Positions 30,194 to 34,257 are shown, counted from the stretch's first letter. The stretch is 64,000 bases of DNA from an uncultured Bacilli bacterium (GCA_910583945.1 CAJTYF010000001.1:16274-80273), one strand, 5' to 3'. A program made the numbers and translations. The notes: a model not told the origin generated them from the letters alone.

Positions 30194-32035
30194 ATGTCAA
30201 AAATAACCACTAAAACTATAATCAGTGATAAAATAGAAGAAATTGAAGAAAAAACGTTATACAATAGTAATTTTTATATTAAAGATTATCAAAGAGGATA
30301 TCGTTGGGAGCCCAAACAAGTAGAAGACTTACTTGAAGATATTTATACTTTTTCCGAAGAAGATCTTAAACTAAAATATTGCTTACAACCCTTAATTGTA
30401 AAAAAAATAGAAAATATTTCTAATCAGCAAAGTTTATCAGTAATGGCAAATGGAAATAATGATAATGAAGTGAATGATGAAAATTTTGAGAAAAAAAATT
30501 GGGAATTAATAGATGGGCAGCAAAGATTAACGACAATATGGTTAATATTAAATATCTGTAACGAAACGATGCCCAGACCAAAACCATTACCCTACAATAT
30601 TTTTTATGAAAATGTTCGTTTAATTGATAATGAATACATAACAATTGCTAAAGATACAATAGGAAAATGGTTTGCTAAATTTGGACCAGTAAAAGATGAT
30701 AAAATTTATTTAATTCAAAGTACTATTCGTAATAGAGTTCAATTCATTTGGTACGAAGTCGATCAAAACGCTCATTCAAATGATATTTTTAAAAAGATTA
30801 ATATAGGTAAAATTCCTTTAACAAATGCGGAATTATTTAAAGCACAGTTATTAAATCGAGATACTCTAAATGAAACAAAAGAAAAAACAAATGTTGAGTT
30901 TGAAAAAATAGCCATGGAATGGGATAAAATAGAGCAATCATTACATGATAATGATTTTTGGTATTTTATTTCTAATGATACAAATGATGAAAAAACTCGA
31001 ATCGATTTTTTATTAGAACTTAAGGCAAAACAAATACAAAATGAAGAAAAAATAGAGACAAAGATTCAAGAAAATGATAACTTGTTTTCTTTTATTACCA
31101 TAAATAATTTTATAAATAAAAAACATTTAGAAAATCCAGAAAAATCCATATTTGAATTACAAGTAGAAATTTGGAAAGAAATTGTTCAAATTCATGATAC
31201 TTTAAAAGCATTTAGTAAAAATCAGGAAACTTATCATTACATTGGCTTTCTTGTTTGTATTAAAACAAAATCTAAAGACGCATATATTGAACAGTTAATA
31301 TCTAAAATAAAAAATAAAAAAAAATCCGAAATTAAAACGATTTTATTAAATGATGTTTATAATGAATTAAAAAAAATAGATCTTGATCAATTAGACTATG
31401 AAACCGATAAAACTAAAATTAAAAACGTTTTACTATTTTTTAACATATTTACTTTGGTAGAAAGTTTAACGGATAGTAAATTTTCTTTTAAAAACTTTAA
31501 AGATAAAAAAACTTCATGGGATATTGAGCACATTCATGCACGAGCAACAGATCAAGAAATATTGCAATTAAATGATATAAATAAAAGGATAGAACTTTTA
31601 AATGGTATCAAAACAGAATTTGTAAATTTAGATTATAAAGATAAAGTAGAAGAAATTGACGAATACATAGAGCAAAAATTAAATCCAAGCAATCCAAAAA
31701 TAACTTCTGAACAATTCTTGAAATTTTATTGTGAAATGACAGATTTATGCGGTGACTTTGATGAAAATGGAATCGGAAATTTGACATTACTGGACTCAAA
31801 AACAAATAGATCCTATGGTAATAATTTATATCCAAGTAAAAGACGTGAAATTATCAAACGCGATAAGGGGGAAATATTTATTCCTGTATGTACAAAAAAT
31901 GTATTTTTAAAAATGTATACAGAAAAAGCCGATAATATGATGAAATGGACAAATCAAGATGCATTAGATTACAAAAAAGCGATTCAAGATGCTTTAGATA
32001 AATTTAAAAATATTGTTGAGGAGGCAAACAAATAA
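30194..32035 (+). CDS. GmrSD-like type IV restriction enzyme (DUF262 + DUF1524 His-Me finger)
   Basis: N-terminal DYQRGYRWE and IDGQQRLTT (DUF262 ParB-like NTPase motifs). C-terminal DIEHIHA ... GNLTLLDSKTNRSYGN (DUF1524/HNH-like). Confidence 0.75.
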   Translation: MSKITTKTIISDKIEEIEEKTLYNSNFYIKDYQRGYRWEPKQVEDLLEDIYTFSEEDLKLKYCLQPLIVKKIENISNQQSLSVMANGNNDNEVNDENFEKKNWELIDGQQRLTTIWLILNICNETMPRPKPLPYNIFYENVRLIDNEYITIAKDTIGKWFAKFGPVKDDKIYLIQSTIRNRVQFIWYEVDQNAHSNDIFKKINIGKIPLTNAELFKAQLLNRDTLNETKEKTNVEFEKIAMEWDKIEQSLHDNDFWYFISNDTNDEKTRIDFLLELKAKQIQNEEKIETKIQENDNLFSFITINNFINKKHLENPEKSIFELQVEIWKEIVQIHDTLKAFSKNQETYHYIGFLVCIKTKSKDAYIEQLISKIKNKKKSEIKTILLNDVYNELKKIDLDQLDYETDKTKIKNVLLFFNIFTLVESLTDSKFSFKNFKDKKTSWDIEHIHARATDQEILQLNDINKRIELLNGIKTEFVNLDYKDKVEEIDEYIEQKLNPSNPKITSEQFLKFYCEMTDLCGDFDENGIGNLTLLDSKTNRSYGNNLYPSKRREIIKRDKGEIFIPVCTKNVFLKMYTEKADNMMKWTNQDALDYKKAIQDALDKFKNIVEEANK

Positions 32036-34257
32036 TGGAAAATTCAAAATTAAACATCGGCAAAAAACAAACATTTTGGCAATTAATTTGTAATGAAAAT
32101 TTAAAAATAAAAATTCCTTTAATTCAAAGAGATTATGTTCAAGGAAGAAATACACCTCAAGTTGAATTAGCAAGGAAGAATTTACTTCAAGATTTAGCCC
32201 AGGCTTTAACAACTTCAAAGACCGTGGATTTGAATTTTATTTATGGGAATATTGAAGAAATATATTTTATCCCTATCGATGGTCAACAACGATTAACAAC
32301 TTTATTTTTACTACATGCTTATGCTTTCGCTAAAGAGAATCAAATAGATTGTTTAAAAATACTAAAAGATAATTTTATATATGAAACGAGAATAACCACT
32401 GATCGATTTTTTAAAGACTTAGTCTTAAATTTACCTACATTTTTTAAAGAAAAAAAGGATTCAGATTTAAAGGAATATATAAATGACGCTTCTTGGTTTT
32501 CGGATACTTGGCTAGACGATCCTTCTATTTACTCATCAATTATCGTTTTAGACGAAATAAATAAAACTTTTGCTCAGACTGAAGATATGGCGAAAAAATT
32601 GATTCAAGATGATTGTCCCATTTTTCTTATGTCTTTACGTATTTTTGATATGGGAAAAGCCAATGATTTATATATTAAAATGAATTCAAGAGGGAAAATC
32701 TTAAGCTATTTTGAATCATTTAAAGCAGAATTATTTGATTTTATTGATAGTAGAGAAAGTATCAATTGGCCAAATTTTAAACGAAAAATAGATAATGACT
32801 GGCAGAATTTAATTTGGGAAGGATGTCGATTTAATGCTTTAGATCCTTTTAAATTATGTGATATTAAATATTTATATCTTATTCATTTTATAATCGTTAA
32901 TCGTGTCATTCCTAAAAAAGAAAATTATGAATTTTCAAAAATAAATAAAATGGTAAATAATAATGGATTCTTTGCTTTTGATAATTATAGGGAATTTTTA
33001 CAGAATACTCCTAGTTTAAATGATATCTATCAAACGTTTGAATTTCTGAAATTTTTAAAAGAAACAGATGAAGAGTGTTATACTAAAATAATGACATGGT
33101 TGATTAAAATAATAGAAAAACCAGAATGGTCAGAAAGAGTTTTAATTTTTGCCATAACAAAATACGCTATAACAGAAAAAAATTGGAATATTAAAAATTT
33201 TTTAGATTATAATCGTATCATGAATAATCTTATTCAGAACACAGTAATTGATACTGAACAATTATATAGCAATGCTTGTAATAGTATAAATAATTTTAAC
33301 GATTTAGTCTTTAAAGATGCGGAAACCTATTTTGCTACTAGAGAAGAAATAACAACTTCAAAAATAAATTTTTTCTTTAACAGAGAACAATTAAAAGAAG
33401 AAAGATATAAATGTCTTCTAATAAAGGGAAATGCTGAATGGAAAAATGAATTAATTATGGCCGAAAAAAATACCTATTTTAACGGTGAAATTGCGTTTGC
33501 TCTTAAATTAACTGGCGCGGACTTAAATGATTTTTCTTCAAATGAGAAGCTTAAAATTGAAGAATTTAAAAATACTTGGAAAGAGATCGCATTATTATTT
33601 AATGATAACGGATTAAGGATAGAAGATAATTTATTTAGCAGAGCTTTACTAACATTTGGCGATTATTCTATGTTAGCTAATTCGAGTTATTCTTTTTTCT
33701 TTGAAGGCAAAAAAGGCTATTTTAATTGGCGACGTATGCTACGTGAAAAAAAATCTTTCGATATTTTTAAGAAATTTTTTGATTCGATTAAACACATTAA
33801 GACAAATGAAGAGTTAGTTAATGAATTAAATTATAAAATAAATAGCTTTAATGATGAAAGCGATGAATTTTTGTTTTATTTAATTAAATACCCTGAATTA
33901 TTTAAATACATGGATGAAAAGCGTTACATCATATGTAATAATAAATGGGAAAAACATAGAATTATTTTATACAGTAAATCAAGATTAAGTGCTGAATATT
34001 CAGAATTTCATACATATATTTTGAAAGTTATTTTTAAAGAAAATATAAATTATCATTTTGGGCATGGCTATTTAGATAATGAAGATTCATTTGCTCATAT
34101 TGATTCAATTTGTAAAAAAGAGAGTTATATTGAATATGATGAAAAATTTAGAGATAAATTTGGAAATCCACTTATGAATGGCAATAAAGAAGTGGTATCA
34201 ATCAAAGAAGCTATAGAATACATTAATAAAATAATAAAAGACAATAAGCTGAGTTAA
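32035..34257 (+). CDS. DUF262-domain protein with long uncharacterised C-terminal region (TgvA/GmrS-like partner)
   Basis: IPLIQRDYVQGR and IDGQQRLTTLFLL DUF262 motifs. No DUF1524 motif seen. Start overlaps the upstream stop (TAATG). Confidence 0.65.
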   Translation: MENSKLNIGKKQTFWQLICNENLKIKIPLIQRDYVQGRNTPQVELARKNLLQDLAQALTTSKTVDLNFIYGNIEEIYFIPIDGQQRLTTLFLLHAYAFAKENQIDCLKILKDNFIYETRITTDRFFKDLVLNLPTFFKEKKDSDLKEYINDASWFSDTWLDDPSIYSSIIVLDEINKTFAQTEDMAKKLIQDDCPIFLMSLRIFDMGKANDLYIKMNSRGKILSYFESFKAELFDFIDSRESINWPNFKRKIDNDWQNLIWEGCRFNALDPFKLCDIKYLYLIHFIIVNRVIPKKENYEFSKINKMVNNNGFFAFDNYREFLQNTPSLNDIYQTFEFLKFLKETDEECYTKIMTWLIKIIEKPEWSERVLIFAITKYAITEKNWNIKNFLDYNRIMNNLIQNTVIDTEQLYSNACNSINNFNDLVFKDAETYFATREEITTSKINFFFNREQLKEERYKCLLIKGNAEWKNELIMAEKNTYFNGEIAFALKLTGADLNDFSSNEKLKIEEFKNTWKEIALLFNDNGLRIEDNLFSRALLTFGDYSMLANSSYSFFFEGKKGYFNWRRMLREKKSFDIFKKFFDSIKHIKTNEELVNELNYKINSFNDESDEFLFYLIKYPELFKYMDEKRYIICNNKWEKHRIILYSKSRLSAEYSEFHTYILKVIFKENINYHFGHGYLDNEDSFAHIDSICKKESYIEYDEKFRDKFGNPLMNGNKEVVSIKEAIEYINKIIKDNKLS

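Follow-up and report, generated by a model that had tools for sequence, protein, structure and literature searches.

A probable GrwAB-family two-protein restriction system in a defence island beside a conjugative element of an uncultured Bacilli bacterium

The described systems closest to the gene pair reported here, the open reading frames (ORFs) A and B of a DNA stretch from an uncultured Bacilli bacterium (GCA_910583945.1, CAJTYF010000001.1:16274-80273; the whole 64,000-nucleotide stretch is called the window), are two restriction systems of Vibrio cholerae, each composed of a pair of DUF262 proteins. The GrwAB system: this two-protein restriction system is carried on VSP-II of West African-South American (WASA) V. 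cholerae (A1552VC_00274-75; AWB73057.1 and AWB73058.1). GrwA consists of a DUF262 domain, a linker and a DUF1524 domain, and the substitutions R81A, H431A, N521A and N530A each abolish defence; GrwB, the product of the second gene, combines DUF262 with “domains of unknown function”, and its R86A substitution likewise abolishes defence. Both grwA and grwB are needed in Vibrio, GrwA alone giving no protection. The system restricts Tevenvirinae, with sugar-modified hydroxymethylcytosine (hmC), and Queuovirinae, with 7-deazaguanine, escapers of which map to the phage protein DpdA. Homologues occur in ~1% of genomes, and the authors' hit list includes Clostridia (Roseburia), Bacilli (Streptococcus), Bifidobacterium, Helicobacter, Campylobacter and Bacteroidota (Nat Microbiol 2025, PMC12137116). 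The TgvAB system: this is encoded on V. cholerae VPI-2 (VC1767-66), where TgvA, the product of the first gene, is a DUF262-only protein and TgvB combines DUF262 with DUF1524; neither protein is dispensable, the DUF262 domain of each is needed along with the one His-Me nuclease, and the target is glucosylated hmC DNA (PMC11411939; bioRxiv 10.1101/2024.04.05.588314). The range of GrwAB is wider than that of TgvAB, as it takes in 7-deazaguanine DNA (PMC12137116).

Both ORFs of the window are encoded on the + strand and were recovered at exactly the coordinates given for them by a first-pass annotation. Full-length homologues exist for each, and at a local G+C content of ~25% reading frames that stay open for 613 and 740 codons are far beyond chance. 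They meet in a TAATG stop/start at 32033..32037 (+), the TAA of ORF A (32033-32035) sharing one base with the ATG of ORF B (32035-32037). The first-pass annotation had noted this overlap, and had described two DUF262 proteins of which the first alone has DUF1524; the sequence bears out the former and Pfam the latter. The components of the pair are the following:

30194..32035, + strand: ORF A, GrwA-like GmrSD-type enzyme (DUF262, helical linker, DUF1524 His-Me nuclease), 613 amino acids (ORF call, translation, Pfam, profile A2)
30263..30853, + strand: DUF262/GmrSD_N NTPase-sensor domain of ORF A, residues 24-220 (Pfam, E = 5e-27)
30512-30526, + strand: D107GQQR111 motif of ORF A, inside DUF262
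31517..31858, + strand: DUF1524 His-Me finger region of ORF A, residues 442-555, with H446, N529 and N538 (Pfam GmrSD_C and conservation)
32035..34257, + strand: ORF B, GrwB-like (DUF262 and family-specific ~500 amino acids), 740 amino acids (ORF call, translation, Pfam, profile A3, AlphaFold2 mean confidence as given below)
32080..32736, + strand: DUF262 of ORF B, residues 16-234, with Q31-R32, D82GQQR86 and Y213...N217 (Pfam, E = 2.8e-17; invariant columns)
32278-32292, + strand: D82GQQR86 motif of ORF B, inside DUF262
32776..33366, + strand: all-helical middle of ORF B, residues 248-444, with conserved D276, R394 and N398 (AlphaFold2 secondary structure, conservation counts)
33367..34254, + strand: C-terminal alpha/beta module of ORF B, residues 445-740 (AlphaFold2 model of that part alone; no solved fold relative)

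The two families were compared with reference sequences from the supplementary tables of the GrwAB preprint and of PMC11411939, namely the first 400 amino acids each of GrwA (603 amino acids in full), GrwB (821 amino acids), TgvA, TgvB and further GrwA and GrwB hits of the GrwAB authors. Scoring used hidden Markov models of the ORF A family alignment (A2) and the ORF B family alignment (A3). A2 matches V. cholerae GrwA across residues 2-399 (E = 8e-129, 420 bits) and A3 matches GrwB across residues 1-393 (E = 6e-129, 421 bits); these profiles also match the authors' GrwA and GrwB hits from Helicobacter hepaticus and Phocaeicola vulgatus (E = 3e-94, 6e-123 and 3e-93). At the level of pairwise identity, ORF A shares 31-37% with GrwA and ORF B 37-38% with GrwB. 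The residues whose substitution abolishes defence in Vibrio have equivalents in the window: R86 of ORF B is R86 of GrwB, the arginine of DGQQR with the same residue number, while in ORF A R111 corresponds to GrwA R81 and H446, N529 and N538 correspond to H431, N521 and N530. The shift in numbering from R81 to R111 is due to a low-complexity insert of ~25 amino acids in ORF A. The gene junction is likewise preserved, as V. cholerae grwA (268547-270358) and grwB (270358-272823) overlap by one base. Since the profile matches, the residue equivalences and the gene order and overlap are shared with the Vibrio pair, the module belongs with the GrwAB family and not with an inverted TgvAB. We hence consider it likely, with good confidence, that a two-protein, modification-dependent (type IV) restriction system of the GrwAB family is made up of ORF A and ORF B. 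The pair is lodged in a defence island of a low-GC Gram-positive chromosome, with an integrated conjugative element as the neighbour of that island. The pair is real and already explained: it is a distant member of a published family and no new arrangement.

The first-pass annotation had proposed a two-protein GmrSD-like, modification-dependent type IV system, a general class to which the GrwAB match would also assign the pair, and within that class it had likened the pair to TgvAB with the opposite gene order. In such an inverted TgvAB-type system ORF B would be the equivalent of TgvA and ORF A that of TgvB, and the logic is indeed the same: a DUF262-only protein and a DUF262/DUF1524 protein, both required in Vibrio. 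The sequences, however, point to GrwAB as the closer relative. TgvA and TgvB reach 73-92 bits against A2 and 11-33 bits against A3, in each case in the DUF262 core only, as against 420 and 421 bits for GrwA and GrwB; GrwB is, in the GrwAB authors' own account, unlike TgvA outside DUF262 (PMC12137116); and the order with the GmrSD-like gene first is native to GrwAB. An inverted TgvAB system is thus a very unlikely description of this locus.

ORF A has the architecture of the first gene product of GrwAB: a DUF262 domain with the QR, DGQQR and FxxxN motifs, a helical linker, and a DUF1524 domain with H...N...N. The motifs are Q33-R34, D107GQQR111 and E445-H446 ... N529 ... N538, and the family alignment shows Q33, R34, D107-R111, F199, N203, H446, N529 and N538 to be invariant across 43 relatives. 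In Pfam the GmrSD_C/DUF1524 match covers residues 525-555 (E = 1.8e-5, above the gathering score). The Asn/Ser/Glu-rich insert (NISNQQSLSVMANGNNDNEVNDENFEKKN; residues 75-101, window 30416-30496) lies between the conserved 'CLQPxVVKK' and 'WELIDGQQR' of DUF262; by alignment it is lineage-specific and absent from V. cholerae GrwA. Beyond Pfam, the matches of ORF A are limited: PADLOC 2.0 gave partial N-terminal matches alone, to the Orf5, HEC-06 and SspE models, a PDB sequence search gave a marginal match of the N-terminus to SspE (E = 0.005), and an NCBIfam search gave no match for either ORF A or ORF B.

With a complete GmrSD architecture and its catalytic residues in place, ORF A could conceivably be a self-sufficient single-chain enzyme of the GmrSD/BrxU kind, as single-chain GmrSD, BrxU and HEC-06 act alone. 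ORF B would then be a dispensable accessory, such as a regulator or a protein that senses phage anti-restriction proteins or serves as a decoy for them; an anti-anti-defence role of the partner is raised as a possibility by the authors of both TgvAB and GrwAB. Two lines of evidence speak against it. One is the Vibrio genetics outlined above, in which GrwA did not protect without GrwB and defence was lost with GrwB R86A. The other is that A-like and B-like genes are adjacent in essentially every genome in which DNA upstream of the B gene is available. This came from a sample in which one genome per species was scanned with the ORF B family alignment, giving 80 loci whose ORFs were called and searched with ORF A and ORF B. 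An A-like GmrSD gene lies immediately upstream of the B-like gene, on the same strand, in 75/80 loci, with A-like matches of E = 2e-34 to 3e-144 that, with a single exception, cover ORF A from end to end. In four of the five exceptions the B gene is at a contig end, and in the fifth (L015) the A gene is split into two ORFs. Among paired loci the A-like genes encode 505-768 amino acids and the B-like genes 645-917. The start codon nearest the A stop most commonly gives a 4-nucleotide overlap (22 of the 75 loci), and the 1-nucleotide overlap of the window recurs in four. The hosts include Bacillota, Bacteroidota, Alpha-, Beta- and Gammaproteobacteria, Actinomycetota, Campylobacter (Campylobacterota), Treponema (Spirochaetota), Chlorobium (Chlorobiota) and Verrucomicrobiota; the pairing of A with B is thus essentially obligate, or nearly so, across at least eight phyla. 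An ORF A that works by itself is accordingly improbable, and we return to the two-protein GrwAB-like system as the preferred reading.

In three related loci the A-like gene is divided, with DUF262 in an N-terminal ORF and the nuclease in a C-terminal one (L014:4938-7143, L015:5167-6989 and L030:5191-6992). These may be frameshifts, pseudogenes, or natural split versions of the GmrS/GmrD kind.

The second protein is distinguished by what follows its DUF262 domain. GmrSD_N is the sole domain that Pfam detects in ORF B, and residues 235-740 are without a match in Pfam, NCBIfam or PADLOC at E up to 0.1; PADLOC 2.0 and PDB sequence searches with the protein likewise gave none. The first-pass annotation had singled out a long novel C-terminal region, which it could not assign, and a domain search of it found no Pfam, NCBIfam, PADLOC or PDB match. 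The region is nonetheless not new, being conserved throughout the GrwB family: among the candidates scored there are 2757 ORF B homologues at E < 1e-3, and the best 120 of these are nearly all 680-850 amino acids long with a query coverage of 72-99%, so that the long C-terminal region is a conserved feature of the family and no remnant. A profile of the C-terminal module recovered 1545 clusters at 50% identity from 1.84 billion cluster representatives searched. Among the best 150 of the 1545 the module begins at about residue 440-480 of proteins of 700-860 amino acids, or sits in shorter ones that are probably fragments. Judged from these sequences, the module appears to be tied to the GrwB architecture and to be a hallmark of the GrwB family.

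The AlphaFold2 model of full-length ORF B, built from a 60-sequence alignment, has a predicted local distance difference test score (pLDDT) of 90.8 and comprises DUF262 (residues ~1-240), a helical part (residues 248-444) and the C-terminal alpha/beta module. Modelled alone, residues 445-740 reach a pLDDT of 92.3 and a predicted template modelling score of 0.88. In a Foldseek search of the PDB the full-length model matched SspE (E = 1.8e-4, template modelling (TM) score 0.26) and BrxU (E = 0.14), with no other match below E = 0.6; residues 445-740 found no match, the best values being E = 3.3 in the PDB and 1.9 in BFVD. Outside DUF262 the invariant or near-invariant polar residues are D276, R394, N398, Q452, E455, E456, K459, E477, G484, R536 and G542-D-Y544.

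As DUF262 begins both proteins, ORF B might be taken for a decayed or frameshifted duplicate of ORF A, the latter a possibility already entertained in the first-pass annotation, or the pair for a non-functional remnant. A comparison of the two families with hhalign, however, aligns residues 7-259 only, which is DUF262; the C-terminus of ORF B is conserved in thousands of full-length homologues and modelled with a pLDDT above 90; and several independent metagenomic contigs carry both proteins in identical form. The likelihood of decay or duplication is therefore next to nil, and ORF B is better regarded as an intact GrwB-like partner.

A degenerate DUF1524 in ORF B was also considered. It was suggested by a likeness seen by eye between 'E477..G484-E-I' and 'R536-A-L-L..G-D-Y' of ORF B and 'E-H-I' and 'N-L-x-L-L..D..N' of ORF A. 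We rejected it, as there is no profile-profile alignment outside DUF262 and no His-Me structure was matched; nor does the region of ~500 amino acids hold a recognisable nuclease motif. Among the papers searched, GrwAB was mentioned in the original work and in reviews alone. The region is confidently folded, is without a solved or viral predicted structural relative, and has the invariant residues D276, R394, N398, E456, K459 and E477. We put forward, as a speculation that we ourselves hold to be rather doubtful, that the GrwB-type region might be a new reader of DNA modification or might hold a second catalytic site, and so determine which substrates the complex accepts. Distant Bacillota members, the window pair among them, would then recognise a modification other than those cut by Vibrio GrwAB.

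The proposed mechanism builds on the anatomy of the pair, its conserved catalytic residues, its family membership by profile comparison and its near-obligate synteny, and it draws further on Vibrio genetics and on the biochemistry of BrxU, SspE and GmrSD. ORF A and ORF B would be made from one transcript, with their translation probably coupled via the TAATG junction. ORF A would be the GrwA-like effector, with a ParB/Srx-like DUF262 NTPase domain, the helical linker and the DUF1524 His-Me finger nuclease; ORF B would be the GrwB-like partner, with its own DUF262 NTPase domain (R86) and the family-specific ~500 amino acids. By homology with Vibrio GrwAB the two would cooperate, probably within one complex. 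The DUF262 domain of each is expected to bind and hydrolyse nucleoside triphosphate while sensing hypermodified bases of incoming DNA, which in the Vibrio case are glucosyl-hmC and 7-deazaguanine derivatives (PMC12137116). The His-Me nuclease of ORF A would then cut the hypermodified DNA, while the host's own unmodified DNA would escape with no cognate methylase needed. For the window pair, complex formation, the need for both proteins and the dependence on modification are thus predicted by analogy with these better-studied enzymes.

Several points weigh against the assignment to GrwAB or narrow what it conveys. Identity to the sole characterised member is only ~31-38%, and the comparison with GrwA and GrwB covers the first 400 amino acids of each. 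The experimental basis for the family comes from the V. cholerae pair (PMC12137116). As for expression, a terminator scan of this AT-rich DNA found none and a promoter scan nothing convincing. The substrate range of the window member may differ from that of the Vibrio system. The first-pass annotation had envisaged that both proteins might match a well-characterised system at high identity and with known specificity; the family is indeed a characterised one, but at ~31-38% identity the modification recognised, and with it the specificity, is not transferable from Vibrio GrwAB to the window pair.

The candidate expression signals of the pair are these:

30126..30171, + strand: two overlapping promoter-like sites (TG-extended -10 TATAAT) in the 74-nucleotide gap upstream of ORF A (weak evidence)
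30181..30187, + strand: Shine-Dalgarno sequence AAAGGAG, 6 nucleotides before the ATG of ORF A (read from the sequence)
32018..32024, + strand: Shine-Dalgarno sequence GAGGAGG for ORF B, within the 3' end of ORF A and 10 nucleotides upstream of the ORF B ATG (read from the sequence)

The promoter scan of the AT-rich region was uninformative, with 58 promoter-like matches and 61.5 expected from shuffled sequence.

The surroundings of the pair fall into three parts. Window 1-22200 is chromosomal and encodes housekeeping proteins, namely PolA, MraW, a PASTA-domain PBP, ribosomal protein L19 and signal peptidase. Window 22200-37200 is an island that comprises a UDG-rich gene run, several unassigned ORFs, the GrwAB-like pair, RhuM and an OLD-family nuclease. 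Window 37678-64000 carries the genes of a conjugative element of Gram-positive type. Several metagenomic contigs carry this island too, their ORF A and ORF B being identical to those of the window; in one of these (L001) chromosomal genes follow in place of the conjugation genes, so that the element appears to have been inserted next to the island.

Directly downstream of the pair, window 34391-37205 encodes RhuM (PADLOC candidate PDC-S05, E = 1e-132) and then, overlapping it, an OLD-family ATPase-TOPRIM nuclease, for which Old is the best PADLOC model (E = 1.4e-20) and GajA and AriA are weaker. RhuM and OLD are adjacent in all related contigs that reach that far (L001-L005) and may form a two-gene defence unit. 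Their position directly downstream supplies a defence-island context that supports the restriction reading of the pair.

Upstream, window 22201-30119 (+) is an operon-like run of Cdd1, three UDG-superfamily proteins, DUF5680, FGase/Q_salvage, an ECF-like sigma factor and four ORFs without a Pfam family; PADLOC models matched no gene of this run. The features named in this run and in the conjugative element are:

22710-22982, + strand: Cdd1, upstream gene run
22986-23633, 23679-24365 and 29538-30119, + strand: three UDG-superfamily proteins, upstream gene run
37678-64000: conjugative element, with ParA/ParB; a 909-amino-acid thioester-domain/SpaA adhesin and sortase; a 2598-amino-acid SNF2-helicase protein; two DUF6664 proteins; and, further, DUF3991-Toprim, a MobA/VirD2 relaxase, DUF3801 and a VirD4/TraG coupling protein

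DNA-glycosylase-like proteins and a queuosine-salvage-like domain thus adjoin a system whose Vibrio homologue targets 7-deazaguanine DNA. The first-pass annotation had linked the pair to the UDG-rich operon. When the window neighbours (UDG, Q_salvage, sigma factor, RhuM, OLD and others) were compared by phmmer with the ORFs within 7 kb of the 80 related pairs, one RhuM fragment and one ParA were the only matches. As no homologue of the upstream run was found within 7 kb of the pair in 80 genomes, the UDG-rich operon is a co-resident of the island that lies outside this system. A functional link of the pair to the upstream UDG, Q_salvage and sigma genes, or to the downstream RhuM and OLD, was accordingly rejected, there being no conserved association in the 80 loci.

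Two genes upstream of the pair vary among related contigs. A dCMP/cytidine deaminase gene is broken in window 22201-22713, into an N-terminal ORF of 33 amino acids (22201-22302) and a C-terminal ORF of 67 amino acids (22510-22713), and is intact (170 amino acids) at that position in L001, L002 and L005. FGase and Q_salvage form a single ORF of 305 amino acids in the window (24838-25755) and two ORFs elsewhere: 252 and 186 amino acids in L002 (2391-3703), L003, L005 and L006, and 77 and 226 amino acids in L001 (2787-3704). This region is polymorphic, or frameshifted or deleted in some copies.

The likeness to SspE and the conjugative element together raise one further alternative: a phosphorothioate-dependent function like that of SspE or DndB, or a ParB-like protein that helps to maintain the neighbouring conjugative element. 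SspE is the best PDB match in both sequence and fold, and ParA/ParB and conjugation genes lie 3.4 kb downstream of the pair. The similarity to SspE is, however, weak (E = 0.005 for the sequence, N-terminus only; TM 0.26 for the fold), and no Ssp or Dnd protein is present among the 20 neighbouring ORFs scanned. The pair occurs without ParA/ParB and conjugation neighbours in 75 genomes, and contig L001 has the module without the ParAB and adhesin genes. Such functions have an extremely low probability, and the evidence continues to favour a GrwAB-family restriction system.

This assignment offers a named, experimentally grounded function for a pair that is annotated merely as 'DUF262 domain-containing protein' and is missed as a defence system by PADLOC 2.0. 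By sequence analysis only, it adds a low-GC Gram-positive chromosome to the range of the GrwAB family, the pair lying there in a defence island beside a conjugative element, and the comparative data independently confirm the pairing of A with B. For structural studies of how modified DNA is read by two-protein GmrSD-like systems, the C-terminal module of GrwB, with its unmatched fold, is the natural place to start.

When compared with the named systems, the pair is nearest to GrwAB. The two have the same gene order with a 1-base overlap, a first protein with DUF262, linker and DUF1524 His-Me domain, and a second with DUF262 and a long unassigned region; profile-level homology extends along all 400 residues compared of each protein, the catalytic residues are equivalent, and the family is spread over many phyla, Clostridia and Bacilli included. 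The pair differs from GrwAB in that ORF B has 740 amino acids and GrwB 821, that ORF A has the extra low-complexity insert of ~25 amino acids in DUF262, and that the host is a low-GC Gram-positive with RhuM and OLD downstream and no adjoining Shedu (VcSduA) gene. With TgvAB it shares the class of two-protein GmrSD-like type IV systems; in TgvAB, however, the DUF262-only protein comes first, the genes are embedded in a type I restriction-modification operon, and TgvA and TgvB resemble ORF B and ORF A in the DUF262 core only. With the single-chain GmrSD enzymes (Eco94GmrSD, BrxU, SspE and HEC-06) ORF A shares the DUF262-linker-DUF1524 architecture and the QR, DGQQR and H...N...N motifs, although it resembles the SspE, HEC-06 and Orf5 models in sequence over its N-terminal ~100 residues only; SspE and BrxU are also the best, though weak, fold matches of ORF B. 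SspE further depends on SspABCD, which has no counterpart among the 20 neighbouring ORFs scanned. Above all, each of these enzymes works as a single polypeptide, while genes of the ORF A type essentially always have a gene of the ORF B type as their partner.

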